Below, in pieces: positions 23,181 through 53,183 of a stretch of 57,279 nt of DNA. Each line of letters begins with the position of its first letter. Position 1 is the first letter of the stretch. The stretch lies in the NCBI GenBank assembly GCA_009927815.1, contig RFMI01000139.1:1-57279 (forward strand), given 5' to 3'. Origin of the DNA: Betaproteobacteria bacterium. GTDB taxonomy: Bacteria > Pseudomonadota > Gammaproteobacteria > Burkholderiales > UBA3065. The notes beneath the pieces are model-generated. The model saw nothing but the letters and a program-made list of their open reading frames with translations. It was not told where the DNA came from and did not search any database. Made by a program: the position numbers and the translations under genes.

Positions 23181-23741
23181 TTACTTGACGCGGTTGCGGT
23201 ACTCGGCGGTGCGGGTGTCGATTTCGATCTTGTCACCGATTTCGACAAAGGCTGGCACCTGGATGATGAAGCCGGTTGGCTTGATGCGGGCGGGCTTCAG
23301 CACCTTGCCCGAGGTGTCGCCCTTGACTGCAGGCTCGGTGTATTCCACTTCGCGCACCACCGAGGTCGGCAGTTCGACCGAGATGGCACGACCTTCGTAG
23401 AAGGTGACCTCGCAGGGTAAGCCGTCGTCGAGGTAGTTGAGCGCGTCACCCATGTTGTCGGCCTCGACCTCGAACTGGTTGTACTCGGCGTCCATGAACA
23501 CGTACATCGGGTCAGCGAAGTAGGAGTAGGTCACGTCCTTGCGTTCGAGCATGATCAGGTCGAACTTGTCGTCGGCCTTAAACACGGTCTCGGTGCCCGA
23601 ACCCGACAGCAGGCTCTTGAGCTTGACCTTCATCACCGCCGAGCTGCGGCCCGACTTGTTGTATTCGGCTTTCTGCACAACCATCGGTTGGCCGTCGAGC
23701 ATGATCACATTGCCGCTGCGCAATTCTTGTGCGGTCTTCAT
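23181..23741 (-). CDS. efp: Elongation factor P (Arg32, EarP-type)
   Basis: 186-aa [45 protein letters not shown]. The modification loop is KSGR (Arg where E. coli has Lys34), as in the Pseudomonas, Shewanella and Neisseria EF-P proteins. Confidence 0.96.
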
Positions 23742-23767
23742 AGCCAGTCACCCGTACACGTAGGAAA

Positions 23768-24880: not shown

Positions 24881-24984
24881 GTTCGATCCGGACGCGAGGC
24901 CGGTCGGCGCGATTGACTTCTCACAAGTCCGGCGAGAGCCGGAGACGTACAATACGAGCACTTCGTCTACCGAAAGATTCTGGC

Positions 24985-30583: not shown

Positions 30584-32155
30584 ATGCCCTTCGAATCCGA
30601 GATCGCCCGTCGGCGTACTTTCGCCATCATCAGTCACCCGGACGCGGGCAAGACCACGCTCACTGAAAAGCTGCTCTGGTTTGGCGGCGCCATCCAGGTC
30701 GCCGGTGAAGTGCGCGCGCGCAAGGCCGCCCGCCATGCGACCTCCGACTGGATGGAGCTGGAGAAGCAGCGCGGCATCTCGGTGACCAGCTCGGTGATGC
30801 AGTTCCCCTACCGCGACGCCATCGTCAATCTGCTCGATACGCCGGGCCACCAGGACTTCTCCGAGGACACTTACCGCACGCTCACGGCCGTGGACTCGGC
30901 GGTGATGGTGATCGACTCGGTCAATGGCGTTGAGGCACAGACCATCAAACTGCTCGAGGTCTGCCGCCTGCGCGACACGCCCATCCTCACCTTCATCAAC
31001 AAGCTCGACCGCGAGGGCCGCGAGCCGATCGACCTGCTGGACGAGATCGAAAAGACCCTGGACATGCCCTGCGCGCCGATGACCTGGCCGATCGGCATGG
31101 GCAAGCGCTTCCGTGGCGTGTACCACCTCTACGACGACCGCATCTTCTTCTTCGACCCGCACGCCGAGAAGGGCACCTCGGAGGTCATCGAGGGCTTGGC
31201 TAACCCGCGGTTGGACGAGCTTATCGGCACGCAGGCGCAGGAGCTGCGCGACGAAATCGAGTTGGTGCGCGGCGCCTCGCACGCCTTCGAGAAGGACGCC
31301 TACCTCGCCGGCCAGCAGACGCCGGTGTTCTTTGGCAGCGCGGTCAACAACTTCGGCGTGCAAAGCCTGCTCGACGCCGTGGTCGACCTCTCGCCGCCAC
31401 CTCAGTCGCGGCCCACCAGCGCCCGTGAGGTGAATCCGGCCGAGAAGCCCTTCACCGGCTTCGTGTTCAAGATTCAGGCCAATATGGACCCGCGCCACCG
31501 CGACCGCATCGCTTTCGTGCGGGTGTGTTCCGGCCGCTTCGAGCGCGGCATGAAGCTCAAACAAGTCGGCAGTGACAAGCTGCTGGCGGTCAACAACGCC
31601 ATCACCTTTATGGCGCAAGACCGCAACACGACCGATGAGGCCTTCCCCGGCGACATCATCGGCATCCCCAATCACGGCACCATCAAGTTGGGCGACACCT
31701 TCAGCGAGGGCGAGGGCTTCCGCTTCACTGGGATCCCGAGTTTCGCGCCGGAGCTGTTCCGCCGCGCGCAGATTCGCAATCCGCTCAAGCTCAAGCAGCT
31801 GCACAAGGGCTTGCAACAGCTGGCGGAGGAGGGCGCGACCCAGCTATTCCGGCCGATCGCCAGCAACGACCTCATTCTCGGCGCGGTGGGCACGCTGCAG
31901 TTCGACGTCGTGGCGCATCGGCTCGAGCACGAATATGCGGTGGAATCGGTGTTTGAGGGCTGCACCTGGGCCACGGCGCGCTGGTTGCGCGGGCCGGACG
32001 CCGACATCAAGCAGCTGGTCGATAAGTCGCCGCAAAATATTGCACTGGATGGTGCCGGCGATTACGTCTACCTCGCACCCAATCGCGTCAACTTACAGAT
32101 GGCGCAGGAGAAGTTTCCCGGCATCACCTTCGCGGCGACGCGCGAGATCGCCTAG
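30584..32155 (+). CDS. prfC: Peptide chain release factor 3
   Basis: 523-aa ORF with [22 protein letters not shown] and DTPGHQDF GTPase motifs. The length is typical of RF3. Confidence 0.96.
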
Positions 32156-32158
32156 CGC

Positions 32159-33283
32159 TCAGAACAGCTCGATGCGCTCGCCGTGCAGCACGCCAATGTC
32201 GTTGCTGCCGGTCAGAGCGGCGCTGTGGTCGATGTGTTGGTGGACCATCACGTATTCCTTCTGCAGACGCGCCAGACGCATGGCGAAGGAGTCGCGATTC
32301 TCGGACGATTCGGGTGTTAAGCCGTCGGTTAGCTGCTGGCGCCAGGCTTCGATGTGCGCGGTGAGCTCGTCGAGTCCCTTGCCGATGGTCTCGAGCTGCT
32401 GGCGGGTGATGTCCTGGAACTGCATCTCACCCAGCGCGTCCGCGATGTCAGCGGACATCTCGTCGTTGCGAGTGCGCAGCAGGACGCCGAGCCCGTTAAG
32501 AAAGCCCAGAACGTCGTCCAACTCGCTGGCCAGCTTGTCCATATTCTCGACCGTCTCGTCAACGTTCAGCAGATCGCTCAGATGCTCGATGTCATCGGCC
32601 ATGTGCTTGATGTCGCTGCGAATCTGTGTGCTGAATCCGGCGATTCCGTCATTGACCCGCTGAGCGGCGGTCTCGGTCTCTAGCGCGAGTTTGCGCACCT
32701 CGTCGGCGACCACACTAAAGCTGCGACCGGCGTCTCCGGCCCGGGCCGCTTCAATCGCCGCGTTGAGCGCCAGCAGGTTGGTCTGCTTGGCGATGTTGCT
32801 AATCATCTGGATCAGCGGTGACAGCTCGCTCACGCCTTGCAGGAACTTGTCGATGCGGACCCGTTCGCGCTCGGCGCTCGCACCGGCGGCCGACTGGTAG
32901 CGGCGCAGATTTTCGAGTGTGTTACGGCTCTGGGCGATGTGGGTGTTGGCGCGTTCTGAGAATGCGATGGAATGCTGGTGGGTCTCGTCCACTTGTTGCG
33001 TCAGGGAGCGGTTGTGCTGATACAAGGCGTCGAGCCGCTGCATCAGGTTCATCGACGCTTCCTCGGTATTGCTGCTGATGGTGCTGATGTGACGCCGCAA
33101 GACAGCGTCGAACAGGCCGAACTCGGCCATGTCGCCAGCCAGCAGCGCGCTGACGTCGGGGGCTTGCGCTGGTGGTGCAATGGCCTCGGCGCGGCGAACG
33201 CGCTGGGCTTTGGCCATCCAACCCGCGGCAAAGCCGACGAGGACCGCCAGAGCTGCGACGATCACCAGGGTCGCCGTCATCAC
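32159..33283 (-). CDS. Methyl-accepting chemotaxis protein: single N-terminal TM anchor, no recognisable sensor domain
   Basis: 374-aa ORF with one hydrophobic helix ([21 protein letters not shown]), the MCP tip motif [37 protein letters not shown], and a C-terminal MQFQDITRQ motif. It is the last gene of the che operon and overlaps the cheY stop. Confidence 0.88.
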
Positions 33284-33645
33284 GCCCCCGGCACCACCTG
33301 TTTGATCACCTTGATCAGGTCCTGCCCCCCAACCGGCTTGACCAGCCAGCCGGTCGCGCCGCTCTGCTTGGCTTCGTCGCGTTTGCCTTGCTGCGACTCG
33401 GTGGTCAGCGCCAGGATAGGCGTGAAGCGCAGGATCGTGCGAGCCTTTTTGATGAACTCGATGCCGTTCATGTTCGGCATATTGATGTCGGTGATGATCA
33501 AGTCAGGCTTGAGCCCGGATTTGAGCTTGTCGAACGCGATCACTCCGTCGGTCGCGGTGTCGGTCTTGAATCCCGCCATGTCGAGGGTCTGTCGCAGGCT
33601 CATCAGCATGGTGGCCGAGTCATCCACCAGCAGCACGGTCTTCAT
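33280..33645 (-). CDS. cheY: CheY-like single-domain response regulator
   Basis: 121-aa receiver with LLVDDS, the phospho-acceptor context LIITDINMP, and a conserved K in WLVKP. Confidence 0.9.
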
Positions 33646-33652
33646 TGCAGGC

Positions 33653-33898
33653 TCACTCCTCGCGTTTGGATTGAACGGCGGCGAGGGTCTCGAGCAAGAA
33701 CCCTGGCGGCGGGACGGCGGATAGCCGCGGTCTGCAAGCCATCAGAACTTGCAACACCGCGGCGTGCAGGTGCTCGCAGGCTTGGAGGTCGGCACTGCCT
33801 TCGGGGTTTTGCATCATCCACGACAACAGGCCTTCGGCCTCGTCGACACTGCAGACGCCGCTGAACACGGCGGTGTCTTCACCAAACTCGATCGGCAT
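33653..33898 (-). CDS. Small STAS-like / anti-sigma-antagonist-like protein (81 aa) in the che operon
   Basis: An 81-aa ORF whose ATG overlaps the cheA stop (ATGA at 33896-33900), so it is translationally coupled. The STAS assignment rests on size, context and weak resemblance, and is tentative. Confidence 0.45.
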   Translation of the reverse strand: MPIEFGEDTAVFSGVCSVDEAEGLLSWMMQNPEGSADLQACEHLHAAVLQVLMACRPRLSAVPPPGFLLETLAAVQSKREE

Positions 33899-36621
33899 CA
33901 GAGCAGCTCCTTGAGATTGAGGACCATCAGCACCGAGCCATCGCCGAGTAAGGCGGTGCCGGCGTAGCCTCCCAATTCGCCGAGCACGCCCTCGAGCGGC
34001 TTGAGGATCAGGTCGAGGGTGGCGTCGAAGTCGTCAACGATCACGCCCACGTCCTGATCGCCGAGGCGAATCACCAGAACGGCCACCTCGCCGGCCTCGT
34101 TGGCGACCGGCTGCGCGGGGATGCGCAACAGATCGTTGAGCGCATACAGTGGCACGATGCGGCCGCGCAGCACGGTGGTGCGCTGCTGTTTGATCTGGTG
34201 GATGGCCTCGGCGGGGACCCGCACCGTCTCGACCACCATGTCCATCTGCACGCCGAACATCTGTTCCGCCGAGCGGATGATCATGACGTTGGTGACCGCC
34301 ATCGACAGTGGCAACGCGATGCGGATGCGCGTTCCGCGTCCCAGTTCGCTGCTGAGTTGCACCTGACCTTGGGCCCGCTCGATGGCGCTGCGCACCACGT
34401 CCATGCCAACGCCACGTCCCGATAGATCACTGATCTGCTCGGCGGTGGAGAGCCCGGCAGCGAATACCAGCTGCACCGCCTCGTGGTCGGTCATGGTGGC
34501 CGCGCGCGCTTCGTCGATCAGGCCGCGGTCGAGGGCCTTGGCCTTGATGCGTGCCGGGTCGATGCCACGACCGTCGTCGCCGATCTCGATGATGACGCGG
34601 TCGGCTTCCTGGAAGGCGGTGATGCGAATCAGGCCGATCTCGCGTTTGCCGGCGGCACGGCGCTCGTCGGGCGGCTCGAGGCCGTGGTCGAGACTATTGC
34701 GGACAATGTGGATGAGCGGGTCGGCCAGCGATTCGACGATGTTTTTGTCGGCCTCGGCGTCTTCACCCTCCATGTACAGCTCGACCTGTTTGCCAAGCTT
34801 GCGTGAGATGTCGCGCACCAGACGCGGGAATCGCTGGAAGATGCTGCCCACCGGCAGCATCCGCACTTGCATGATGGCGTCCTGCATCTCTTCCGCGATG
34901 CGGTTGATGACGCCGTACTGGGTTTTGATGTCGCGTGCGATCTCGCGCGGGTTGCTGCTGGTTTCGGCGCGGGCGGCCAAATAGGGTAGCGAGTTCTTGG
35001 CCACGACCATCTCGCCAATCAAGTCCATCAGCCGGTCGATCTTTTCCTGCGACACTTTGAGCACCTTGCTGGCGCCCGATTCGCTGGTGCCGGCCTCTGC
35101 CAGCAATTCGCTCCGCGCAAATCCCTCTGCCGCCAGCGGACGTAGAGCGGTGTCATCGGCAGAGGTCTTGGCCGCTGGCCCAGGCGTCTGCGCGCGCGGG
35201 TGTTCCGCCGTCGCGACTGGCACCGGCACCGGCGAGTGCACCGAGGCCGCAACGACCGCGGGCGGCGCGTCGCCAGTCCAGCCGTCGATGGCGCGCAGCA
35301 GACCCTCGATGTCAGCGCGCGCGGCGGTCTCGAGCACCGCGTTGGCGGCGTCGGGACGACCCTCGTAGCGGCAGATCGACGCCAGGACGCGGCCGACCGC
35401 CAACAAGCTGGTCTCAATCGGGTTGCTCTCGATGAGACGCCGCTGGCTTTGCAGCATCCGTTCGATCAGGTGCTGCTCTTCCTCTGACAGGCCGACCAGT
35501 CGACCTACAACCGCTTTTGACGGGCGCAGGGGCGTCGCCGGAGGGTCGACCAGGTCGCGCGGGGCTTGGGTGCCCTCGGCCATCTGGTTGAGTACGCGTG
35601 CCAAAGGGTCGCCACTGGCGGTCTTGAGTGACAGCTGCAGCGCTTCGTCGATGGCCTCGTGGCCGGTGCCGTGCGCGTTGGCCAAGCCCCGCAAGACCAT
35701 CGCGACGGAACGCCAGATGCCCTCGCTGCCTTCGCCTCGCGCTCGAGCCAGCACCTCGTACTGCGATCGTAGGATGCGCGCTGCGGCTGATTCGTCTTCT
35801 TCGCTGAGTCCGCGGTCGGCCAAGGTTGCGGCATCGCGGGCGGGTGTCCCGGTTGCCGGCGTTGCCAAGGGCTGTCCGGTGTTTGCCGCTACCGTGTCGA
35901 TCTCGACTTGATCGATGACGTAGCGAAAATGCTCCTGCAAAGCTTCGCGACTGGCCTCACACCAGCCCTCGATGGCGAGGTTGCAATCGTATGGGTCCAG
36001 CAAATCCAGTGCGGGCCAGGGTTGCACCGGTTCAACGGTGATCCGCTGCAGTCCGGGCGCTTGCAGAGCGTTGTAGAGCGGGTCTTCGCCTTTGAAAAAG
36101 CAGCCGCGTTCGGCGATGTAACGAAAGTGCATGCCACTGGTGGCGCCGGGCAGCGGCGCCTCGCCAGTTTCAGGCGGGTCTGCTGGCGCGAGGGCCGGCT
36201 CAGGGTCTGCCGCTATTGGGCTTTGCGACAGCGGACCGGCGCGCAGTGCGCGCAAAGTGACCGCGAGTTCGCGACCCGCCTCGCATAGGCGGGGGTCGAG
36301 TGCTTTGCCGGCGTCGATGTTGTCGAGCATCAGCGAGACGATGTCCATGCATTCCAGCAGGTGATCGGCGACCTCGGCGTCAAAGCCGCGAGTGCCGTCG
36401 CGCACCACATCGAGCAGGTCCTCGCCCGCGTGTACCAAGTGCGTGAACGCGCTGTATTCGGCGAACAGGCCGCTGTTGCCTTTGAGCGTGTGAACGGCGC
36501 GAAACAATTCGTCGATGGCCGCGCTGTCCCGCGGATCACGCTCCAGCGTCAGCAGGCCTTGGGCGATCGAATCGAGGAAGTCCCGCGATTCGATAACGAA
36601 CTGTTCGAGCAGCGGATTCAT
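33898..36621 (-). CDS. cheA: Chemotaxis histidine kinase CheA (907 aa; Hpt, long unassigned region, dimerisation, HATPase and CheW-like domains)
   Basis: The Hpt His lies in RAVHTLKGNSG (His44). The P3/P4 part has KVSQEKIDRLMDLIGEM, HIVRNSLDHG, DDGRGID and GRGVGMD. A C-terminal CheW-like domain is present. There is no fused receiver. Confidence 0.93.
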   Translation of the reverse strand: MNPLLEQFVIESRDFLDSIAQGLLTLERDPRDSAAIDELFRAVHTLKGNSGLFAEYSAFTHLVHAGEDLLDVVRDGTRGFDAEVADHLLECMDIVSLMLDNIDAGKALDPRLCEAGRELAVTLRALRAGPLSQSPIAADPEPALAPADPPETGEAPLPGATSGMHFRYIAERGCFFKGEDPLYNALQAPGLQRITVEPVQPWPALDLLDPYDCNLAIEGWCEASREALQEHFRYVIDQVEIDTVAANTGQPLATPATGTPARDAATLADRGLSEEDESAAARILRSQYEVLARARGEGSEGIWRSVAMVLRGLANAHGTGHEAIDEALQLSLKTASGDPLARVLNQMAEGTQAPRDLVDPPATPLRPSKAVVGRLVGLSEEEQHLIERMLQSQRRLIESNPIETSLLAVGRVLASICRYEGRPDAANAVLETAARADIEGLLRAIDGWTGDAPPAVVAASVHSPVPVPVATAEHPRAQTPGPAAKTSADDTALRPLAAEGFARSELLAEAGTSESGASKVLKVSQEKIDRLMDLIGEMVVAKNSLPYLAARAETSSNPREIARDIKTQYGVINRIAEEMQDAIMQVRMLPVGSIFQRFPRLVRDISRKLGKQVELYMEGEDAEADKNIVESLADPLIHIVRNSLDHGLEPPDERRAAGKREIGLIRITAFQEADRVIIEIGDDGRGIDPARIKAKALDRGLIDEARAATMTDHEAVQLVFAAGLSTAEQISDLSGRGVGMDVVRSAIERAQGQVQLSSELGRGTRIRIALPLSMAVTNVMIIRSAEQMFGVQMDMVVETVRVPAEAIHQIKQQRTTVLRGRIVPLYALNDLLRIPAQPVANEAGEVAVLVIRLGDQDVGVIVDDFDATLDLILKPLEGVLGELGGYAGTALLGDGSVLMVLNLKELL

Positions 36622-36622
36622 G

Positions 36623-36994
36623 TCAGGCGTGTTCCCCGAGCATCAAACGCACGCTGGTGGTCAGCTCGACTGGCCGTGCCGGCTTGATCAGGTAGAAGTT
36701 GGCGCCAGCGGCATACGCGCGGTCGGCGTCTTTGCTCTCCGATTCGGTGCTGACCATGATCGCCGGCGCTTGGGCCAGTTCAGTGCGTGAGCGCAGTTCG
36801 GCGATGAAGCGGTAGCCGTCCATTTTCGGCATGTTGATGTCGACGATGTAGAGGTCGTAAGGCGTCGACACCGCTTTTTCCAGGGCTTCAAGGCCGTTGA
36901 CCGCCTCATCCACCTCCAGCCCGCAATCCTCAAGGATCTTGCGGTGGTACATGCGCACTGTGGCGGCGTCGTCGATGATGAGAACGCGTTTCAT
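36623..36994 (-). CDS. cheY: CheY-like single-domain response regulator
   Basis: A 123-aa receiver starting at MKRVLIIDDAATVR, with DLYIVDINMPKMDG and YLIKP. Its start overlaps the cheR stop (ATGA). Confidence 0.9.
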   Translation of the reverse strand: MKRVLIIDDAATVRMYHRKILEDCGLEVDEAVNGLEALEKAVSTPYDLYIVDINMPKMDGYRFIAELRSRTELAQAPAIMVSTESESKDADRAYAAGANFYLIKPARPVELTTSVRLMLGEHA

Positions 36995-37857
36995 GCTGCT
37001 CCCCCCTGGAAGGCTTTTTGGTAAACGATCGCATCGTCGAACTTGCGGATGCGGAAAACACTGGAGATTCGGCTCATTGATTCGGAGTGGCCGAGGCAAA
37101 TGAATCCGCCCGGATTGAGGGCGTTGTAGAACACGTCGGCGGCCGCGCGACGCGAGGCGTCGTCGAAATAGATCAGCAGGTTGCGGCAGAAGATCAGGTC
37201 GAAGCGGTTGTAGGCGCGCGTGCTGAGAGTGTCGGACAGGTTGCACTGGGTGAATTCGACGGCTTGGCGCAAGTCGTCACTGATCTGCCAGTCGCCGGTG
37301 CGGGTCTTGCGGAAATACTTTTGCAGCAGCGTCGCGGGCAGGTTTTGTACCGAGCGTGCGCTGTAGATGCCTTGACGAGCCTGGTCGAGGATGCCGGTGT
37401 CGATATCCGATGAGATGATCTCGACGTCGAATTGGTGAATCCCCGGCCAGTGCTCAAGCAGGTAGATGCAGATCGAGTAGGGCTCTTCGCCCGACGAACT
37501 CGGGATCGACCAGATGCGGATGGGTTCGCGTCGCCCCTTGCGCTGAGCGAGTTCGGGCAGCAGGGCGTTGACCATGCATTTGAACTGGTATTCCTCGCGG
37601 AAAAAGTAGGTCTCGTTCACCGTCATCAGGTTGACGAGTTGCTGCAACTCATCACCGCGGGTGTCGAAGCGCAGATTTACGAAGTATTCGCGGAACGTTG
37701 CCACGCCGCTGGCAACCAGCCGCTCGACCAGCCGCTTGTCGACGAAGTAGCGTTTGCTCTCTTCGAAGTAGATGCCGGTCTTGCGGTAGAAGAACTCCCT
37801 GAACTTCAGAAAGTCCTCTTCGCTGATCGACGGTGCTGCTGCAGTCAATGTGTTCAC
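36991..37857 (-). CDS. cheR: Chemotaxis protein methyltransferase CheR
   Basis: The motifs NETYFFRE, IWSIPSSSGEEPYS and FCRNLLIYFD are present. GTG at 37857 gives a typical ~288 aa protein. The upstream ATG at 37968 would overlap the HEAT gene by about 100 nt. Confidence 0.9.
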   Translation of the reverse strand: MNTLTAAAPSISEEDFLKFREFFYRKTGIYFEESKRYFVDKRLVERLVASGVATFREYFVNLRFDTRGDELQQLVNLMTVNETYFFREEYQFKCMVNALLPELAQRKGRREPIRIWSIPSSSGEEPYSICIYLLEHWPGIHQFDVEIISSDIDTGILDQARQGIYSARSVQNLPATLLQKYFRKTRTGDWQISDDLRQAVEFTQCNLSDTLSTRAYNRFDLIFCRNLLIYFDDASRRAAADVFYNALNPGGFICLGHSESMSRISSVFRIRKFDDAIVYQKAFQGGAA

Positions 37858-37861
37858 GATG

Positions 37862-38476
37862 TCAGGCGGCGATCTTGTCAAGGGCGGCGGCCACCGCAAA
37901 TGTGATGAACGGCTCGTCGGCAAAGCGCACTTCCAGTCGCGCCAGCGGCACCCGGGCCCGGCTGTCACCCACTTCAGCCAGAAGGTCGACCGCGGTCGCG
38001 CAGACGTTGATGTGGGGGTCGGTCTCGATCACCGCGATCAGCCAGTCGACCACTTTGGGGTGCTTCAGCGATTCGAGAATGTTGACGGCGAAGATGCGCA
38101 CATCCGGATCGGGGTCGGCCAGCAGGGTCGGCATGTAGGGGGCAATGGCGTCTGGCTGCTCTTTGAGCAACTCGATGACGTCGTTGCGCAGACCGGCATC
38201 TTCGCTGCGCAGATAACCCATGACGCCCTGCACCACCTCGGGGCCGCCGGTGGTCGAGAGGCTGGACACGATCGCTTGGCGAACCGCGTAGTCCTCCTCG
38301 TCGGCCAATTGCGCCAACAGTTCGGCGATGGCGCCGCTGTCGCCTGCAAGCTCAATCGCTGCACTGCGCCGCGAGTCTGCATCGGGGCTGCTCAGTTGCA
38401 TGAACAAGACCGCTCGGCTGGGCCGGCCAGCCGGCTCCTCGATGACTTCAGGGGTGCTGCTGCGGACGAGTGCCAT
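37862..38476 (-). CDS. HEAT-repeat protein embedded in the che operon
   Basis: 204 aa from ATG 38476. Repeats of the type DPDPDVRIFAVNILESL, SEDAGLRNDVIELL and DEEDYAVRQAIVSSL are characteristic of HEAT/PBS-lyase-type repeats. Confidence 0.7.
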   Translation of the reverse strand: MALVRSSTPEVIEEPAGRPSRAVLFMQLSSPDADSRRSAAIELAGDSGAIAELLAQLADEEDYAVRQAIVSSLSTTGGPEVVQGVMGYLRSEDAGLRNDVIELLKEQPDAIAPYMPTLLADPDPDVRIFAVNILESLKHPKVVDWLIAVIETDPHINVCATAVDLLAEVGDSRARVPLARLEVRFADEPFITFAVAAALDKIAA

Positions 38477-38513
38477 CAGACGGTTCCTCTGCGAGACAGG
38501 CTGACACGGTACA

Positions 38514-39662
38514 TTAGTGAATAGCCCATTGGACGAGTTGTTCGGCGATTTCCTCGGCATCCAGAACCACGCCGGCGCCACCGCGTTTGATCAATTCCCC
38601 GGGCATGCCGAACACCACCGAAGAGCGTTCGGATTCGGCGATGGTGCGACCGCCGCGGCGATGGACCTCGACCATTGCGTCGGCACCGTCGTCGCCCATC
38701 CCGGTCAGCATCACGGTGATCAGACTGTTGGGCTGACAGTAGAGCAGCGCGCTCTCGACCATAGCCTGAACCGACGGGTGCCAGTTGTAGCGGCGGTCGG
38801 CGGGCTTGACGATGCCGTACAGCTTGCCGCCGCGATCACTGATCAGCAGGTCGGCTCCGCCTTGCGCGATGTAGATGGTCCCGACCTCAAGCGGCGTCGG
38901 TTGACTGATTTCGCGCACGTTCATCGCGCATTGACCGTCCAGACGGTTGGCGAAGGACGCGGTAAAGGCCATTGGCATGTGCTGAGCCACGACCACAGGC
39001 CACGGGAAATACACTGGCAGACGGGGCAAGATCGACTCGAGCGTACGCGGCCCGCCAGTCGATACGCCCACCAGCACGAGACCGTGTGATCGCGTTGCGG
39101 CAGCGGAGGCCGCGACCAGTCGCTGTGTTGTTGTAACCGTGGGGACTTTGCTTGCGGGTCGCCGGTCCGCTGGACGGACGCGGCTCTGTGTGGCTGGACT
39201 GCTTGTCCTCGCGTCGCCGTCGGCGCTGACTGGACTGGACCCCGAGCGCTCCGGCCGACCCGTCCGCGGGCGCACCTGCGCGGCCGTCCGCAGCTTCGTC
39301 AGCAAGTCTTCACGCACTTGGTTGATCGACAGCGAGATGGTGCCGTCCGGCTTGGCGACGTAATCCACGGCACCGAGGGCCATCGCTTCGAGTGTGGCGA
39401 GGGCGCCCTTTTCGGTCAGCGAGCTCACCATAATCACGGGCGTCGGACGTCGCGTCATGATGTGCGACAGGGCCGTCAGGCCGTCCATCTCCGGCATATT
39501 GATATCGAGCGTGATGACGTCCGGTCCGAACCGTTCGAGCTGCTCGAGCGCCTCTCGCCCGTTGCGTGCCGTCTCGATCTCGAAATCGGATTCGTCCGCC
39601 AGCATCGAGACCAGCTGTTTGCGCATTAGCGCGGAGTCATCGACGATCAGGACCCGGGGCAT
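38514..39662 (-). CDS. cheB: Protein-glutamate methylesterase CheB (receiver plus methylesterase)
   Basis: MPRVLIVDDSALMR and VITLDINMPEMDG form the receiver. A Pro/Ser/Arg-rich linker follows. The catalytic domain has GVSTGGP, AQHMP and GMGDDGA. Confidence 0.93.
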   Translation of the reverse strand: MPRVLIVDDSALMRKQLVSMLADESDFEIETARNGREALEQLERFGPDVITLDINMPEMDGLTALSHIMTRRPTPVIMVSSLTEKGALATLEAMALGAVDYVAKPDGTISLSINQVREDLLTKLRTAAQVRPRTGRPERSGSSPVSADGDARTSSPATQSRVRPADRRPASKVPTVTTTQRLVAASAAATRSHGLVLVGVSTGGPRTLESILPRLPVYFPWPVVVAQHMPMAFTASFANRLDGQCAMNVREISQPTPLEVGTIYIAQGGADLLISDRGGKLYGIVKPADRRYNWHPSVQAMVESALLYCQPNSLITVMLTGMGDDGADAMVEVHRRGGRTIAESERSSVVFGMPGELIKRGGAGVVLDAEEIAEQLVQWAIH

Positions 39663-39672
39663 GGGGAGGGTC

Positions 39673-41226
39673 TCAGGCGGCGATGTCTTGCAAGGCATCG
39701 ATCTCCTCGGCTTCCAGCAACTGGTCGGGCTCGATCATCATCACCAGCCGTTTGCTGGCCTGCAGATTGGCGACCCGACGTATCAACCGGCTTTGATCGG
39801 CCGACAGGCGTGGACTGTCCTCGATGGCGGCGTGGGGGATCTTCATCACCTCGGCCACCGAGTCGACGATGAAACCGGTGCGTGTGCCGTTGAGCAGGTA
39901 GACCATGATGCGTTGCCGGTCGTTGCGATCGATGCTGTCCAGGCCGAAACGCCGGCGCTGGTCGATCACCGCCAGAACCGTCCCGCGCAGATTGATCACG
40001 CCTTCGACGAACTCGGGCGACTTCGGCACCCGGGTCAAGGCTTCGGGCACCCGCACGATCTCTTGCACGGACTCGATCGGCACGCCGAACTCGGCGGCGC
40101 CCAGCCGAAACACCACCACTTGGGATTCGTCGGCGTTGCTGCCGTCCCTGTTGTCGATCTCTGCCACAGTCTGTGCCTCCTCAAGCGCGGACTCATGCGT
40201 CTCGTTGATGCTGTCGATGATCGATTCGGATAGCAGTCGGTCTGGCGCGATCACCGAGACCAGGCGTTTGCCATCGCCCAGGCGGCAGATGGCGGTGATG
40301 TCACCCTGTCCATCACGGGCCATGATCGGCGGCATCTCTTCAACACACTGGTTGGGTACACGCAAGACCTCGCTGACGCGGTCCATGACCAAACCCACCG
40401 ACACCGAATTGAGATTGACGACGACGATGCGGTCGGCGCTGGACAAGTCGCGCTGCGGGAGGTCGAACAGCTGCCGCAAGCTCACCAGCGGCAACAAGCG
40501 GTTGCGCAGGGTCATGATGCCGACCAGGGCGCGCGGAGCGTCAGGCACCTGGATCACGCGGTCTGGCGCCTGCACGATCTCCTGCACGGAGCTGATGGCG
40601 ATCGCGTATTCCTGGCTTTCGACCACAAAGCTGACCAGCTGGGTTTCGTCGGCAAGACCGTCGTCTTCGTCATCAAGCGCGGTGTGGTCGGCGTGCTGGC
40701 TGGTGAGGCTGCCAGCCGTGCCAACGGAGTGGTGCAGTTCGGCGAATGCCCGCTCCATCAAGCGGGCGAAGTCGACCAGCATCACCATGTCTTCGCCGGC
40801 ATTTTTGATCACGCCGCTGATCAGGTCACTGCGACCGGCGCCACTCAAACTCTCGGACGGCTCGAGTTGGTCGGGCTCAATCGATATGACGCTGGTGACG
40901 CTGTCAACGACAAAGCCCATCGGCGTGCCGAGATCGATGACCACGGCACGCGTCAGTTCATCGCCCTCGATATCGGGCAAACCAAAGATCTGCCGAAGAC
41001 TGACGATCGGCAGCACGTGGCCGCGCAGATTCGCCAGGCCCAGCAGGTGGCTCGGGGCCAGCGGCACGCGCATCGTGACCGGCACCCGGATGATCTCCTG
41101 CACAGGGGCCATGGGTGCGGCGAACACATCGCTGCCAACCTTGAAGGTCACATACTGATTGAGGTCTGCGGCGACCTCGTCGTCGGCATTGCTCGGGTCT
41201 TCGACGGCTGCGTTCAGATCGCTCAT
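39673..41226 (-). CDS. cheW: Triple-domain CheW scaffold protein (three tandem CheW-like domains)
   Basis: 517 aa with three copies of the CheW core. Residues ~23-158 have YVTFKVGSDVFAAPMAPVQEIIRVP...GLANLRGHVLPIVSL. Residues ~195-333 have LVSFVVESQEYAIAISSVQEIVQAP...GIMTLRNRLLPLVSL. Residues ~368-505 have VVVFRLGAAEFGVPIESVQEIVRVP...GVINLRGTVLAVID. Confidence 0.88.
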   Translation of the reverse strand: MSDLNAAVEDPSNADDEVAADLNQYVTFKVGSDVFAAPMAPVQEIIRVPVTMRVPLAPSHLLGLANLRGHVLPIVSLRQIFGLPDIEGDELTRAVVIDLGTPMGFVVDSVTSVISIEPDQLEPSESLSGAGRSDLISGVIKNAGEDMVMLVDFARLMERAFAELHHSVGTAGSLTSQHADHTALDDEDDGLADETQLVSFVVESQEYAIAISSVQEIVQAPDRVIQVPDAPRALVGIMTLRNRLLPLVSLRQLFDLPQRDLSSADRIVVVNLNSVSVGLVMDRVSEVLRVPNQCVEEMPPIMARDGQGDITAICRLGDGKRLVSVIAPDRLLSESIIDSINETHESALEEAQTVAEIDNRDGSNADESQVVVFRLGAAEFGVPIESVQEIVRVPEALTRVPKSPEFVEGVINLRGTVLAVIDQRRRFGLDSIDRNDRQRIMVYLLNGTRTGFIVDSVAEVMKIPHAAIEDSPRLSADQSRLIRRVANLQASKRLVMMIEPDQLLEAEEIDALQDIAA

Positions 41227-41246
41227 GACGCGCTCCCGCTGCCGAC

Positions 41247-43178
41247 TCAGGCGCTTTGCAGTTCGTCAGCCAGCGAGGCGATCTCTTCGATCGCTGCCGA
41301 CAGCTCTTCGGCACCTTGCGACTGTTGCTTGGCCGCGGTCGCTGCTTCGCCTGCGGCTTGCTCGGCTTCGGCGGCGGCAGAGCTGACCTGCTCGACGCCA
41401 ACCTTGACCTGCGCCACCTGCGCCGCGACTTGCTCGGCGAGTTTGGTCACCTGTTCGCCGCCAGCCGCGATCTCGTTGACGTCGGCTTCCATTTGCAGCA
41501 AAGCGGCGGTGATGCCCTTTGATTTCTCGACCTCGACCAGCGCGGCCGACGCGATTTCTTCGAGGTCGTGGCGAACGGCGGCGATCTGATCCTGCACGCC
41601 TTTGACCATGTCCTTGATGCGGTCGGCGTTCTCGGCCGAGTCGTGGGCCAGATTGCGGATGTCGGTGGCCACCACGACAAAGCCCTTGCCGAACTCGCCA
41701 GCCCGCGCTGCCTCGATGGCACCGTTGACCGCCAGCATATTGGTCTGGATCGACACCGAGGTGATGGCGTCAACGATCTTGTCGATGCGGCGGCTCACCA
41801 GCTCGAGTTCCTTGATTTGAACCAGGCTGCTGCGGGTGCCCTCAACCGAAGACCGGATGCCCTTCACCAGTGAATCGACGGCCGACTTGTTGCTGAGCAC
41901 GGCGGCCTGAATGGCGCGCGATTTTTCCAGCGCGAGGCCGGCTCGCTGCAGTGAGATCTTGACGCCGTCTTCGATCTGCGCGACCGCTGCGGCAGACTCA
42001 TGGCAGGCGGCAGCCTGGGTCTGGGCGCCACGGCGGATCTCGTCGATGGCGACCAGGATCTGGCTCGATGAGCGGTTGATTTCTTGCACCGCAGACGACA
42101 ACTCTTCGGCGGCCGAGGCCACGTCTTCGGCACTCTTGCTGATATTGCTGCTGTTCTTCAGGTCGTCGGCGATGTCCGACAGGCTGCCAGCGGTGGTTTC
42201 GCATTCGGCCAGTGCCTGCGATTGTTCGGCCACGGTTTTGGCGGACTCTTCACAGGCTGAGGACTGTTGTTCGGCGGCTGCGGCGATTGATTCGGCGCCA
42301 CGCATGGCCTGAATCGTGGCGGCGGACGCCTGTTGGGCCGCTGCGGAGATCTCGGTAGCGCCAACGACAACGTCGCCGGCATTCACCGCGATTTCGGTCA
42401 GTTGAGTGGTGATCACTTTGCCGCGCTCCACTTCAGCCTGAACCGCTTGAGCCGACTGGTTGATGCCGGTCGAGATGACCTGCACCTCGGACTGAATCTG
42501 CGACACCAGCTGCTGGATCTCGCCGGCACTTTTTTCTGAGGTTTCGGCGAGCGTGCGCACTTCATCGGCCACTACGGCGAACCCCTTGCCGTGTTTGCCG
42601 GCGCGGGCCGCTTCGATGGCAGCGTTGAGCGCCAGCAAGTTGGTTTGGTCGGCGATTCGCGCCACGGCCTTGACGATGTCGCTGATGTTGGACGCCTGCC
42701 GCTCAAGCTCAGCGACCATCTCCACCGAAGCAATTTGGCGTTGCGCAGCGATGTTGACGTTGCCGACAGATACGGTGACGTCGGTCTGGATGGTCGAGGC
42801 GATGCTCTGCATGTTGGTGGCGCGTGTCTGGGCCAGTTGCGCAGCCTGCATTTGTTGGGTGATCGCAGACGACATCGCCGTGACCGCCGCCAGAGATTGC
42901 TGCGCGGCGCCCGAGGCCTCTTGGGCGCCCGCCGCTATGGTGTCGGACGCGCGGCGCAACTCTTCGGACGCGCTGGCGGCTTCATTGATGCCGGAGGCGA
43001 GCTCCGCCGAGGCGGCCGCGATGCGTTCGGCGGCCTGTTGTTGCTTGGCCATGGTGCGTGCGCGGCGGCGCAGGGCCTCGGCATCACGGTTGGAGGCCGC
43101 TGGGGATGGCGACGCCCCAGTCGGCGGAAAATCGTCCAAAGACTGACTGTCGGTGCGCGATTTTTTGACCAGAGCCAT
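41247..43178 (-). CDS. Soluble MCP with two tandem signalling (hairpin-tip) domains, DosM-like
   Basis: 643 aa with no hydrophobic TM segment and no sensor domain. It has two MCP tip motifs exactly 300 residues apart: [38 protein letters not shown] (res ~175-212) and [37 protein letters not shown] (res ~476-512). Confidence 0.88.
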
Positions 43179-43390
43179 GAAACGGAGTCCCCTCGATAAG
43201 GTTCGCGAATCTAGCCCATGTGTTTATCGGGCTAAGCCATTTTATACATAGTCTACGCCAAAGGGCGAGTCGACGGCGTGCGGCGATTGTGCAATATCTT
43301 TTTACGCAACAGGCGATCTACGACTAGAGAACTCGCTAAACAGTTGTCCGTTTCTGCCCTCACCGTCCAGATGGCGGCGTTTGACGGGGG

Positions 43391-43420
43391 CAAAAACAAA
43401 GCCCGGCATGACCGGGCTTG
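43391..43420 (-). terminator. Rho-independent terminator downstream of rho
   Basis: On the minus strand the sequence reads AAGCCCGG-TCATG-CCGGGCTT followed by TGTTTTTG. It starts about 22 nt after the rho stop codon and insulates rho from the che operon promoter region. Confidence 0.75.
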
Positions 43421-43441
43421 TTGAGGCGCAAATAGATTCGC

Positions 43442-44701
43442 TTACCCGCGCCGCATCGAGTCGAAGAAATCGGCATTGGTTTTGGTCGCGCGAATCTTGT
43501 CGAGCAAAAACTCCATCGCGTCGAGGTCGTCCATCGGATAGAGCAGCTTGCGCAGCACCCACACCTTTTGCAGGATGTCTTGTGGCAGCAGCAACTCTTC
43601 GCGGCGGGTGCCCGAGCGATTGACGTTGATCGCCGGGAACACGCGTTTCTCGGCGCTGCGGCGGTCGAGGTGGATTTCGCTGTTGCCAGTGCCCTTGAAT
43701 TCTTCGTAGATCACCTCGTCCATGCGGCTGCCAGTGTCGATCAGCGCAGTGGCGAGAATGGTCAGCGATCCGCCTTCTTCGATGTTGCGCGCAGCACCAA
43801 AGAAGCGCTTGGGCTTCTGCAAGGCATTGGCGTCGACACCGCCGGTCAACACCTTGCCGGAGGCCGGCTGCACGGTGTTGTAAGCGCGCGCCAGACGGGT
43901 GATCGAGTCGAGCAGGATGACCACATCCTTTTTGTGCTCGACCAGCCGTTTGGCCTTCTCGATGACCATTTCGGCCACTTGCACGTGACGTTGGGGTGGT
44001 TCGTCGAAGGTGCTGGCGACGACTTCGCCGCGCACCGAACGCGACATCTCGGTCACTTCTTCGGGGCGCTCGTCGATCAGCATGACAATGAGCACCACGT
44101 CCGGATGGTTGCTGGTGATGGCGTGGGCGATGTGCTGCATCATCACGGTCTTGCCGCTTTTCGGCGGCGCCACCAGCAGGCCGCGTTGGCCTTTGCCGAT
44201 CGGCGCGATCATGTCGATGACGCGGCTGGTGATGTTTTCCTCAGCCTTGATGTCGCGCTCGAGTTTGAGGTGTTCGTCGGGGTGCAGCGGCGTCAGATTC
44301 TCGAACAGGATCTTGTTCTTGCTCTTTTCCGGCGGCTCACCGTTGATGCTGTCGACTTTGACCAGCGCGAAGTAGCGCTCGCCCTCTTTTGGGGTGCGGA
44401 TCTCGCCTTGGATGGTGTCGCCGGTGTGCAGGTTGAAACGACGGATCTGCGAGGGGCTGACGTAAATATCGTCGGGGCCGGCGAGGTAGCTGGTGTCCGG
44501 GCTGCGCAGAAAGCCGAAGCCATCTGACAGGATTTCCATGGTGCCACTGCCGCTGATGGTCTCGCCCTTTTTGGCGTGGTTCTTGAGCAAGGCGAAGATG
44601 AGGTCCTGCTTGCGCAGGCGATTGGCGCCCTCGATCTCGAAGGCTGTAGCCATCTCGACCAGTTCGGTCACGTGTTTGTTTTTGAGGTCTGCGAGATCCA
44701 T
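43442..44701 (-). CDS. rho: Transcription termination factor Rho
   Basis: 419-aa ORF with [18 protein letters not shown], the RNA-binding GFGFLR, the Walker A motif PPKSGKT, and a typical C-terminus. Confidence 0.97.

Positions 44702-50634: not shown

Positions 50635-53183
<2,549 letters not shown>

Follow-up and report, generated by a model that had tools for sequence, protein, structure and literature searches.

A predicted F9-class chemosensory operon in a betaproteobacterium, with a candidate array-anchored CheY~P phosphatase

The window analysed here, a 57,279-nucleotide stretch (contig RFMI01000139.1) from a betaproteobacterium, carries between rho and prfC a block of ten intact, tightly packed genes on the minus strand (positions 32159-43178; Table 1). 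In the order of transcription they encode DosM, CheW3, CheB, a HEAT-repeat protein, CheR, CheY-a, CheA, a mini-STAS protein, CheY-b and a membrane-anchored MCP (hereafter gene 10). All ten ORFs of a preliminary description of this DNA were found where it had placed them, and in nine of them Pfam domains match its labels; the start of CheB was set at MPRVLIVDD, because its relatives align from there. The genes from DosM to CheR are separated by 20, 10, 37 and 4 nt. The start of cheY-a overlaps the cheR stop codon by 4 nt (ATGA), as had been described, a 1-nt gap precedes cheA, a 7-nt gap separates the mini-STAS gene from cheY-b, and the last junction is a 4-nt GTGA overlap. An ATGA overlap had also been claimed between cheA and the STAS gene; that junction is in fact a 1-nt TGATG overlap with AAGGAG just before it (CTCTGATGCCG). 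The measured gaps (1-37 nt) and overlaps (1 and 4 nt) otherwise agree with the spacing described earlier (gaps of at most 37 nt, overlaps of 1-4 nt). This arrangement is far from chance, because gene set and order recur in most of the 80 loci that we fetched via CheA.

Table 1. Features of the operon and its flanks (window coordinates; operon genes in order of transcription)
Feature	Position	Strand	Basis or remark
rho	43442-44701		hairpin and T-run downstream at 43419-43399
Leader, rho to first che gene	43179..43441	-	rho terminator hairpin 43419-43399; putative promoter
DosM-type soluble receptor, 643 aa	41247..43178	-	two MCPsignal stretches, tandem hairpins
CheW3 triple scaffold, 517 aa	39673..41226	-	three CheW domains, E=2e-96 (Pfam)
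CheB methylesterase, N-terminal receiver	38514..39662	-	Response_reg (REC) and CheB_methylest (Pfam)
HEAT-repeat accessory protein, 204 aa	37862..38476	-	HEAT_2, E=3.5e-24 (Pfam)
CheR methyltransferase, GTG start	36991..37857	-	CheR_N and CheR (Pfam)
CheY-a, single-domain response regulator, 123 aa	36623..36994	-	Response_reg (Pfam)
CheA kinase, 907 aa	33898..36621	-	P1, P3, P4 and P5 present
Mini-STAS protein, 81 aa	33653..33898	-	no Pfam hit; AlphaFold2 fold; TGATG coupling to cheA
CheY-b, single-domain response regulator, 121 aa	33280..33645	-	Response_reg (Pfam)
Gene 10, membrane-anchored McpA-like MCP	32159..33283	-	MCPsignal only (Pfam); CheZ-type helix
prfC	30584-32155	+	ends 3 nt from last operon gene

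The coordinates bear out the earlier placement of prfC, 3 nt away, and of rho on the other side. Since the rho terminator lies within the leader, the operon needs its own promoter within 43179-43398. The GC content of this stretch is 0.58 against about 0.63 in the operon, in line with the AT-richer leader noted before. No match to the sigma-70 consensus was detected in the leader, and comparison with the three closest loci (L001-L003) revealed no conservation there besides the rho terminator.

The gene content supports assignment of the block to the F9 class, as a complete operon of a known class and not a new kind of system. Both F9 signature architectures, the tandem double-signalling-domain receptor and the triple CheW, are present according to Pfam, and the V. 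cholerae F9 order given in Table S6 of Mo et al. 2022, [DosM W3 B. R Y A. Y M], equals that of the window gene for gene; the same table lists [DosMW3B.RYA.YM] for Allochromatium, Thiocystis and Methylomicrobium. Reviews identify VC1403 as DosM, VC1402 as the triple CheW, VC1397 as CheA and VC1394 as an MCP, and place cheY1, cheA1, cheY2, cheR1 and cheB1 between VC1403/VC1402 and VC1394; the likeness to VC1394-VC1403 is thus one of published gene orders and assignments. In a published tree, however, the clade that contains this operon does not include the Vibrio cluster, which has a long branch of its own. Loci of Allochromatium, Thiocystis, Herbaspirillum and Massilia, all F9-bearing genera according to Mo et al. 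2022, have full-length homologues of the complete set of ten, or of almost the complete set, arranged as in the window. These findings support the earlier reading of the block as F9-like and akin to V. cholerae cluster I. The 80 loci span Beta- and Gammaproteobacteria, Thermodesulfovibrio, Desulfovibrio and one Spirochaetota MAG; the closest relatives of the operon are Rhodocyclaceae-like MAGs.

DosM shares 58-80% identity with its counterparts in related loci along the whole protein. The tips (RAG) of its two hairpins are at residues 192 and 492, and it has no TM segment and seven matches to the methylation-site consensus. Plasmid homologues of CheW3 carry CheW annotation. CheB exceeds the cut-off of the NCBIfam CheB subfamily (362 bits), while CheR differs from E. 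coli CheR by three missing residues in the beta-subdomain loop 'RGTGPHEG'. CheY-a keeps the equivalents of DD, D57, K109 and Y106, with Ser at the T87 position; CheY-b (59-91% identical in related loci) keeps the catalytic residues, with Trp at the Y106 position. Pfam places Hpt (4-93), H-kinase_dim (518-586), HATPase_c (634-773) and CheW (779-907) on CheA, with P1 and P3 about 420 residues apart. Of the stretch between them, residues 165-245 are conserved among 42 homologues and 245-510 are not; according to a preprint, CheA-F9 has an additional insertion. By homology, DosM, CheW3 and CheA would form a cytoplasmic array with two baseplates, like the one imaged in V. cholerae, in which CheR and CheB would methylate and demethylate DosM at its seven consensus sites and CheA would pass phosphate to CheB and both CheYs.

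What the operon senses and controls has no recognisable coding within it. To that extent the earlier verdict of unknown function stands, but an F9 orthologue with a known output exists: in Rhodospirillum centenum, Che2 governs the biosynthesis of flagella. Nothing on output can be transferred from V. cholerae, because its cluster I mutants show no phenotype, with normal swimming and chemotaxis. The same two systems speak against the idea that the operon serves conventional flagellar chemotaxis, CheY~P binding FliM and biasing motor rotation, because R. centenum Che2 mutants, too, are still chemotactic. This idea draws on the 'F' in the class label, on the reported presence of flagellar genes in 97% of F9-bearing species, and on the two CheYs, which retain E. 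coli CheY N59/E89-type positions besides the catalytic residues. We consider it very improbable: the 30 large flanking ORFs scanned across the 57-kb window include no flagellar or further che genes, in agreement with the preliminary description, which had seen no flagellar gene nearby; neither receptor has a periplasmic or other sensor domain in Pfam, as had been remarked of their ligand-binding domains; and in the literature F9 is rarely a genome's sole system and is not considered the main navigator.

In all loci that include the cheB-cheR stretch, the HEAT gene stands between these two genes, and a HEAT gene 44% identical in its product occupies the same place in A. brasilense Che2; in two loci (L031 and L035) a second cheY-b/gene-10 pair sits between cheB and the HEAT gene. 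The protein has 1226 relatives, nearly all of 204-208 aa among the matches listed. Such strong conservation, together with Cpc7, the HEAT partner of CheY7 in a che operon of Myxococcus xanthus, could speak for the HEAT protein as the output target of a CheY, controlling a non-motility process, and a target carried aboard would favour a horizontally mobile cluster. Besides being flanked by cheB and cheR, however, the '.' gene between B and R, taken from its position to be the HEAT gene, is kept in partial F9 sets without CheA and CheY (DosMW3B.R; Mo et al. 2022), and it is lost from [DosMW3BRA.YX] variants though CheA and a CheY stay. An output role is therefore improbable, and the retention in sets lacking CheA and CheY suggests that the HEAT protein probably belongs with CheB, CheR and the array, in a receptor/adaptation module.

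The 81-aa protein encoded after cheA adopts a mini-STAS fold in a confident AlphaFold2 model (pLDDT 89.9), and in Foldseek nearly all of the best matches to this model are STAS proteins, most of them anti-sigma antagonists (for example RsbV, 6m36_D, E=3e-4). With weak STAS_2 hits in 6 of 10 close homologues, this prediction agrees with the earlier 'STAS-like' label. The gene follows cheA in 76 loci, is labelled 'hypothetical' in both annotated plasmid clusters, and overlaps cheA by 1 nt in L081 and L082 as well, so that it is probably translated in step with CheA through translational coupling. RsbV and SpoIIAA bind the GHKL kinases RsbW and SpoIIAB. The STAS protein CheS of S. meliloti biases CheA activity by binding. 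By analogy, the probable partner of the mini-STAS protein is CheA, whose kinase or phosphotransfer activity it would bias by binding.

Gene 10 had been described as a TM-anchored sensorless MCP. The anchor and the MCP hairpin are indeed there: a single N-terminal TM segment (residues 1-19, Kyte-Doolittle 19-residue mean 2.57), the only one among the ten proteins, is followed by a hairpin with a canonical CheA/CheW-binding tip. No methylation-site consensus was found in it. Its C-terminal part is less like a conventional receptor. In the AlphaFold2 model a helix, Q288-F-Q-D291-I-T-R-Q295, precedes another helix, then a disordered tail and finally RIELF, an (I/V)ELF end like the published McpA-like termini EVELF, EIELF and DIELF. 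All 43 members of the family in the loci share a Q[FY]QD[VI]xxQ helix and the ELF terminus, although they are only about 25% identical overall.

When 5.8 billion proteins were searched with a profile of the C-terminal 147 residues, the one match outside the MCPs was a CheZ-family protein of Helicobacter canis (E=3.6e-5). In hhalign this protein matched the gene-10 profile at E=5.9e-9 and 2.3e-10, 82 gamma/beta CheZ sequences at E=8.9e-4, and DosM at E=0.17 and at an unrelated site; gene 10 against E. coli-type CheZ alone is marginal (E=0.01). D291 and Q295 fall in the alignment on the DxxxQ of CheZ, which holds its catalytic residues (D143/Q147 in E. coli, D189/Q193 in H. pylori). Over 11,662 ORFs a CheZ HMM ranks gene-10 proteins first, and a gene-10 HMM ranks mostly CheZ proteins first. 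A DNA scan with the motif also recovered non-MCP proteins, one of which, a HAMP+CheZ protein above the Pfam CheZ gathering score (40.3 bits), has a core, QFQDITRQ, identical to that of the window's gene 10. Gene 10 is coupled to cheY: it adjoins cheY in nearly all loci, its second copy in L031 and L035 is again paired with a cheY-b, and a cheY ends just upstream of 29 of the 42 motif-selected ORFs, non-F9 clusters included. In Table S6 of Mo et al. 2022, other F9 variants have CheX in the position that follows the second cheY. Coiled-coil profiles can also give spurious hits; designed coiled coils reached E=3.5e-5 in a PDB search and an antisense ORF E=0.013.

From these similarities we infer that gene 10 may be an array-anchored CheY~P phosphatase and not a conventional receptor. 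Alternatively, it could be a sensorless membrane-anchored receptor or tether that anchors or nucleates the array without phosphatase activity, one CheY acting as a phosphate sink. The helix would then be a diverged motif of the MCP C-terminal arm: in canonical MCPs a D-x-x-T-Q-Q stands at a corresponding place, similarly far from the tip (QMDQVTQQN in Tap), so that the DxxxQ could be a legacy of MCP sequence that is now kept by another constraint, and the (I/V)ELF end could have some partner that is not CheY. The canonical tip, the almost gap-free alignment of residues 59-273 to DosM hairpin 1, and an MCP (2CH7) as the best Foldseek match are all consistent with a tether, as are reports of McpA-like receptors in arrays. 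Moreover, the Ala of CheZ 'AxxFQ' is not conserved, Pfam CheZ stays below threshold on gene 10 (weak hits in two of eight C-terminal fragments, E=0.03 and 0.22), and two CheYs without CheZ are a known sink design in alphaproteobacteria that also have CheS. A mere tether nevertheless seems doubtful to us. The C-terminal 100 residues cannot be aligned to DosM, which has no resemblance to CheZ, but align to CheZ at E of about 1e-9 to 1e-10; methylation sites are missing; the motif is invariant in so divergent a family and occurs in identical form in proteins that pass the Pfam CheZ threshold; and CheX takes the same slot elsewhere.

Taken together, the best explanation of the locus, to which we give a probability of roughly 0.7, is an F9 operon with gene 10 as its phosphatase, a CheA-binding mini-STAS protein and a HEAT protein in the receptor/adaptation module. 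Gene 10 would most likely dock in the array and dephosphorylate CheY-b, encoded immediately upstream. In view of the CheZ-type active-site helix in gene 10, the earlier statement that no CheZ is nearby is probably wrong; if this is true, gene 10 would be the phosphatase, or off-switch, that the operon seemed to lack.

The ten minus-strand ORFs of the operon fill the che block completely, leaving no space for further genes, and together with their Pfam domains (see the table) they confirm the ten-gene block reported in the preliminary description. NCBIfam was consistent with Pfam on the operon proteins, with CheA, CheB and CheR recognised as generic only. The junctions are gaps of 20, 10, 37, 4, 1 and 7 nt, or overlaps of 4 nt (ATGA at cheR/cheY-a, GTGA at cheY-b/gene 10) and of 1 nt at the junction of cheA with the small gene behind it. 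The last had been described as another ATGA overlap; the DNA, however, reads AAGGAGCTGCTCTGATG, so that the junction is a 1-nt TGATG overlap preceded by a Shine-Dalgarno sequence. The convergent arrangement of prfC with the final operon gene, across a 3-nt gap, is as previously described, and rho lies upstream with its own hairpin/T-run terminator. Among 30 large flanking ORFs scanned across the window we found no flagellar or che genes, which bears out the earlier statement that no flagellar gene lies nearby; these ORFs are mostly housekeeping (hrcA, hemH, purH, purD, metG, efp/earP, trxA, pheA, gyrA and others). The upstream search identified no promoter or regulator site of the operon: neither a sigma-70 consensus upstream nor a conserved upstream element among the closest loci was found.

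Two observations concern the flanks alone. The gyrA gene is split into two ORFs (166 and 672 aa), and the DNA at their junction reads ...CCGGCCGCATCCCCAATCTGCTGATC..., where one added C would restore the conserved protein reading. Because gyrA is essential, the apparent loss of 1 nt most likely stems from an error in sequencing or assembly, and it warns that the window may contain other indels. The gene for the EarP rhamnosyltransferase adjoins efp, forming an EF-P arginine-rhamnosylation pair.

Features of the window, with the operon genes in order of transcription
Feature	Position	Strand	Length	Domains (Pfam) or remarks
Operon, ten genes	32159-43178	-		
Gene 1, DosM	41247-43178	-	643 aa	two MCPsignal stretches
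Gene 2, CheW3	39673-41226	-	517 aa	three CheW domains, E=2e-96
Gene 3, CheB		-		receiver domain and methylesterase
Gene 4, HEAT protein		-	204 aa	HEAT_2
Gene 5, CheR		-		CheR
Gene 6, CheY-a	36623-36994	-		single-domain receiver
Gene 7, CheA		-	907 aa	Hpt, dimerisation, HATPase_c and CheW domains
CheA residues 165-245	about 35887-36129	-	~80 residues	no Pfam match
Gene 8, mini-STAS	33653-33898	-	81 aa	no Pfam match
Gene 9, CheY-b	33280-33645	-		second receiver
Gene 10	32159-33283	-	374 aa	MCPsignal alone
rho terminator	43419-43399			hairpin/T-run
earP	23181-24961	-		adjoins efp
gyrA (two ORFs)	50635-53183	-	166 and 672 aa	junction near 52690-52700

Three features define the F9 class of chemosensory systems: a receptor in which the signalling domain is doubled (DosM), a triple CheW, and the gene order MWB...RYA (Mo et al. 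2022). The first gene of the window operon encodes such a tandem double-signalling receptor, with hairpin tips at residues 192 and 492, thus 300 residues apart on arms of ~150 each; the receptors associated with F9 systems are of heptad class 44H. The second concatenates three CheW stretches, and the order of the genes is [DosM W3 B. R Y A. Y M]. This order is listed for Vibrio cholerae, V. tritonius, Allochromatium vinosum, Thiocystis violascens, Methylomicrobium buryatense, Burkholderia glumae, Kineococcus and Actinoplanes (Mo et al. 2022, Table S6). Our loci from Allochromatium, Thiocystis, Herbaspirillum and Massilia, genera with F9 in the same study, carry full-length homologues in the same order, and the Che2 cluster of Azospirillum brasilense also matches the window operon. 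The main interpretation of the preliminary description, that the operon is a member of the known F9 class, is therefore supported. By itself the window is just one further F9 instance; the added value lies in testable roles for three non-canonical genes, and foremost in a hidden CheZ signature of gene 10.

To compare instances we searched with the CheA protein, one genome per species, which gave 191 relatives; the best 80 of the 191 loci were kept, and their gene order was read by tblastn with all ten window proteins. In most sufficiently long loci among these best 80 the ten genes are collinear. Such loci come from Betaproteobacteria, Gammaproteobacteria (Methylococcales, Chromatiaceae, Oleiphilaceae), Thermodesulfovibrio, a Desulfovibrio and a Spirochaetota MAG. 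Identity to the window proteins is typically 68% for CheY-b, 66% for CheR, ~62% for DosM, 62% for CheY-a, 53% for CheB, 52% for CheW3, 48% for the HEAT protein and 47% for the small protein; CheA is ~45% identical overall (~68% over P3-P5 in loci aligning there alone), and gene 10 just ~29%. The rho and prfC flanks are common to the five closest of the best 80 loci (L001-L004 and L009), which are Rhodocyclaceae-like or unclassified betaproteobacterial MAGs. The closest relative, L001 (CAMDGF010000001.1), has the same flanks, with rho 97% and prfC 95% identical, and is labelled 'MAG: Klebsiella pneumoniae', a label that is almost certainly wrong. The cluster is also found in Methylosinus trichosporium and A. 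brasilense, on replicons that are listed as plasmids, and RefSeq there names a 'HEAT repeat domain-containing protein' and a 'hypothetical protein' in both clusters, each homologous to the window's.

The preliminary description had likened the operon to VC1394-VC1403 of V. cholerae (cluster I) in content and order. This comparison was right, because the published order (Mo et al. 2022, Table S6) and the gene assignments in reviews match the window: VC1403 is DosM, VC1402 the triple CheW, VC1397 CheA and VC1394 the MCP, with cheY1, cheY2, cheR1 and cheB1 between them. The likeness, which extends to a receptor that doubles the signalling domain and lacks a sensor domain, is one of published gene order, and the two '.' slots of the V. 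cholerae order (VC1396 and VC1400) correspond to the mini-STAS and HEAT genes by position only. No Vibrio locus was among the best 80 of the 191 CheA-based loci, and a word-index search with the mini-STAS protein reached close relatives alone. In the published DosM and CheW3 tree Vibrio stands on a long branch with Catenovulum and Salinimonas, apart from relatives of the window operon, which group with Massilia, Herbaspirillum, Allochromatium and Methylotuvimicrobium. According to reviews, the V. cholerae F9 proteins form cytoplasmic two-baseplate arrays held by DosM, which appear when oxygen is low, under starvation or late in stationary phase; the mutants show no phenotype. This two-layer array has been seen for V. 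cholerae only.

The operon had also been described as being of unknown function. This holds for Vibrio but not for the entire F9 class, since the F9 orthologue Che2 of Rhodospirillum centenum controls flagellum biosynthesis, its mutants being hyper- or non-flagellated and still chemotactic. F9 seldom occurs as a genome's sole system, and of its carriers 97% are flagellated (Mo et al. 2022). Che2 of R. centenum and A. brasilense resembles the window operon in its tripartite CheW and in small proteins to which no function is assigned. The HEAT protein of A. brasilense Sp7 shares 44% identity with the window's, and a 79-aa protein encoded after cheA shares 41% with mini-STAS; unlike the window operon, Azospirillum Che2 carries CheY and CheC upstream and lacks a homologue of gene 10 behind the small protein. 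The window CheA carries between P1 and P3 an ~80-residue module, FRYIAERGCFFKGEDPLY...HFRYVIDQVEID, conserved across 42 CheA homologues and followed by a poorly conserved stretch (residues 245-510); it may be the F9-specific insertion described in a 2026 preprint.

Gene 10 is the sole operon protein with a membrane segment (residues 1-19), and Pfam finds nothing in it that resembles a ligand-binding domain, in agreement with the preliminary description. No sensor domain was detected in 39 of the 43 MCP-type members of its family, nor in ten relatives of greater length drawn from the representative library. The AlphaFold2 model (pLDDT 78) consists of a TM helix, a hairpin with arms at residues 44-181 and 183-319, a helix at 327-357 and a disordered tail. 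Residues 59-273 align nearly gap-free to hairpin 1 of DosM (hhalign E=7.6e-25), and for the last 100 residues hhalign gave no alignment to DosM; methylation consensus sequences number none in gene 10 versus seven in DosM. The best structural match is T. maritima 2CH7, a 44H receptor, and the fold search with the full model, which is blind to a single-helix motif, matched MCPs alone. The 43 family members from our loci are only ~25% identical overall, yet in all of them the Q[FY]QD[VI]xxQ helix is invariant and is accompanied by a second motif, Y.M..QR..H, and by a flexible tail with an (I/F/L/V)ELF end. Relatives of the C-terminal module fall into 1501 clusters at 50% identity, with the module at the protein end in nearly all of the 150 matches listed; a plasmid collection yielded just three further gene-10 relatives.

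The invariant helix reads Q288-F-Q-D291-I-T-R-Q295 in the window, where Q288, Q290, D291 and Q295 are invariant in the family alignment. Its counterpart in E. coli CheZ is AQDFQDLTGQ, whose catalytic residues are D143 and Q147. The conserved CheZ signature in the literature is AxxF(Y)Q adjoining DxxxQ (D189/Q193 in H. pylori); the Ala of AxxFQ is not conserved in the gene-10 family. When gene 10 was compared by hhalign with a profile of 82 gamma- and betaproteobacterial CheZ, the motifs were aligned at E=0.01, whereas the DosM control gave E=0.23 at an unrelated site. Over 11,662 ORFs, gene-10 proteins lead the non-CheZ matches of a CheZ model and, reciprocally, mostly CheZ ORFs lead the non-family matches of a gene-10 model. 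Among 5.8 billion proteins the C-terminal gene-10 profile had one non-MCP match, a CheZ-family protein of Helicobacter canis (E=3.6e-5), which contains MQFQDINRQRIERV against the gene-10 consensus iQFQDVvRQrIERv. By hhalign this protein matches the gene-10 profile at E=5.9e-9 and 2.3e-10, the gamma/beta CheZ profile more weakly (8.9e-4) and the DosM control at 0.17. A motif scan with a DNA pattern, biased to GC-rich codons and uninformative on Pseudomonas or Vibrio, had both gene-10-type ORFs and non-MCP proteins among the matches listed, including a HAMP and CheZ protein that scores 40.3 bits against Pfam CheZ, above the gathering score, and whose core QFQDITRQ is identical to the window's.

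Several results count against a CheZ reading of the helix. Gene 10 had no match to Pfam CheZ (PF04344), and of eight C-terminal fragments from its family two reached E=0.03 and 0.22, below threshold. Among PDB sequences the C-terminal profile matched no CheZ and returned designed coiled coils; these matches are compositional noise, and we therefore did not rely on raw hmmsearch E-values alone. In L125, an ORF antisense to a Bordetella cheZ scored E=0.013 against the gene-10 C-terminal HMM, an instance of the marginal false matches that helical, compositionally biased profiles yield. Canonical MCPs, moreover, carry a similarly placed D-x-x-T-Q-Q on the C-terminal arm. In architecture, gene 10 and CheZ (of E. 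coli, and Helicobacter CheZ-HP) have in common a long helical hairpin whose C-terminal arm bears a [FY]-Q-D-x-x-x-Q helix, followed by a linker and a short conserved C-terminal peptide. In contrast to CheZ, gene 10 has the hairpin of an MCP, complete with receptor tip and membrane anchor, and its terminal peptide is IELF rather than DSLGF.

The Q[FY]QD[VI]xxQ helix was also seen in other architectures (L166, L190, L202 and similar loci of Holophagaceae; L191, L241, L272; L182, L225, L247, L269). Among them are CheZ-like proteins, either stand-alone or linked to HAMP, a CheW domain with a CheZ-like helix C-terminal to it, ~34 residues before the protein end, and proteins with a hydrophobic N-terminus and no recognisable MCP tip, ending in KVEIF.

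Besides overlapping cheY-b in the window, gene 10 directly follows cheY-b in nearly all loci. A second cheY-b/gene-10 pair lies between cheB and the HEAT gene in two Simplicispira MAGs (L031, L035), showing that both genes move as one unit. Among the listed matches of the motif scan, a cheY ends just upstream of 29 of the 42 motif-selected ORFs, some of which belong to clusters with a CheA only 30-37% identical and without F9 markers. In seven loci (L177, L184, L223, L224, L238, L259, L233; Accumulibacter, Rhodocyclaceae, Pseudothauera and others) the order is cheY, gene-10-type MCP, cheA, the cheA being 30-37% identical to the window's; an MCP comes next in L177 and L184, and L177 also has cheW. 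The module of cheY and a CheZ-like MCP is thus not confined to F9. Other F9 variants have the phosphatase CheX in the slot after the second cheY (Mo et al. 2022). In L008, L015, L018 and L068 the same slot holds a ParA/MinD-type ATPase gene (AAA_31, CbiA and MipZ matches), and in the plasmid cluster L081 such a gene (16457-17308) follows the mini-STAS gene; these ATPases recall the ParA-like proteins by which other bacteria position their chemoreceptor clusters.

Gene 10 further shows the features of McpA-like receptors, namely a TM anchor, MCPsignal alone and a C-terminus, RIELF, that fits x[IVL][ED]LF. The 'McpA-like C-terminal motif' is EVELF in PA0180 and VCA1088, EIELF in SO_2117 and DIELF in others; it is strikingly conserved, its role is unclear, and it does not bind CheR (Ortega et al. 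2020). Like gene 10, these receptors (PA0180/CttP of P. aeruginosa, VCA1088 of V. cholerae, SO_2117 of S. oneidensis) have a predicted TM segment and no sensor domain, a heptad class that is hard to assign and a conserved C-terminus that is not a CheR pentapeptide, and a V. cholerae review treats VC1394 and VCA1088 together as outliers. By published definition they are tied to ancestral F7 clusters, whereas gene 10 is the last gene of an F9 operon; the CheZ-like helix was seen in gene-10-type ORFs that adjoin cheY outside F9 clusters, and the named McpA-like receptors were compared by description. We found no mention of a CheZ link for McpA-like or F9-terminal MCPs in the searchable literature. 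That the (I/V)ELF end tethers CheR or CheB is unlikely: it misfits the published pentapeptide rule, McpA's version binds no CheR, and the window CheR also lacks the loop residues of the E. coli beta-subdomain.

We propose, on the strength of these sequence comparisons and with a probability somewhat short of one half (about 0.45), that the F9-terminal 'sensorless MCP', and by extension the McpA-like receptors, would be a receptor-shaped CheZ: an anchored hairpin with its tip in the array, a working D291/Q295 site on the C-terminal arm, and a two-gene module with its target CheY. The array's conformational state might then govern the phosphatase activity of such a protein.

The 81-aa protein has a predicted STAS fold, as its earlier designation 'STAS-like' implied. 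Its AlphaFold2 model, built on an alignment of ten close homologues (pLDDT 89.9), is arranged beta-beta-alpha-beta-alpha-beta-alpha, and STAS proteins make up nearly all of the top Foldseek matches (RsbV, SpoIIAA and further anti-sigma antagonists, and also MlaB), the best at E=3e-4 and TM-score 0.65. The window protein matched no curated STAS model of Pfam or NCBIfam; six of the ten close homologues matched STAS_2 weakly (best E=0.0013). The gene follows cheA in 76 loci, and its 1-nt overlap with cheA recurs in the Methylosinus and Azospirillum clusters. STAS anti-sigma antagonists have a phosphorylatable Ser where helix 2 begins. In a manual alignment to SpoIIAA, this position falls on His45-Ala46 within C-x-H-L-H, and neither Ser nor Thr is there to be phosphorylated. 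His45 is retained throughout our loci and also in the two plasmid clusters. A role of C-x-H-x-H in metal binding or redox chemistry was considered and dropped because only His45 stays conserved, the Cys and first His being lost in Azospirillum, Methylosinus and Thermodesulfovibrio.

STAS proteins bind GHKL kinases (RsbW, SpoIIAB), and the P4 domain of CheA is a GHKL domain. CheS of Sinorhizobium meliloti is a STAS-only protein that binds CheA and alters the handling of two CheYs in a CheZ-less system. From this precedent and from STAS binding of GHKL kinases we infer that the partner of mini-STAS may be CheA. CheS (S. meliloti, Agrobacterium fabrum) is likewise a small STAS-only protein in a che cluster with two CheYs; mini-STAS is shorter, and the two are likened by architecture and context.

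The HEAT protein has 1226 relatives, nearly all of 204-208 aa among the matches listed. An interaction of CheY with a HEAT protein is known in Myxococcus (Cpc7/CheY7). In published F9 variants the gene between cheB and cheR, identified by position, is kept in partial sets without CheA and CheY (DosMW3B.R) and lost in [DosMW3BRA.YX] variants that keep CheA and CheY (Mo et al. 2022). Because of this pattern we place the HEAT protein, with low confidence, in the receptor/adaptation module.

Taken by homology, DosM, CheW3 and CheA would form a cytoplasmic array, with CheR and CheB adapting DosM and phosphotransfer running from the array to the two CheYs and CheB. Our comparisons would add to this gene 10 as an array-docking, membrane-anchored CheZ-type phosphatase for CheY-b, mini-STAS as a modulator of CheA, and the HEAT protein as a part of the adaptation/array module.

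F9 systems are widespread, being present in ~2% of complete bacterial genomes (Mo et al. 2022), and include cluster I of V. cholerae; here CheA homologues were found in 191 candidate stretches. Comparison of many instances yields three testable assignments, applicable to the V. cholerae and Azospirillum systems too: a built-in CheZ-type phosphatase disguised as a receptor, which would explain the 'important yet unclear' C-terminus of McpA-like receptors (Ortega et al. 2020), a CheA-coupled mini-STAS modulator, and a HEAT protein belonging to the adaptation module. Should the phosphatase reading be true, F9 would not be a phosphatase-less, sink-only pathway, and a shared module of cheY and MCP-CheZ would link several chemosensory classes. 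A family of receptor-shaped CheZ proteins, if real, would also link the four-helix bundles of MCPs to the origin of CheZ.
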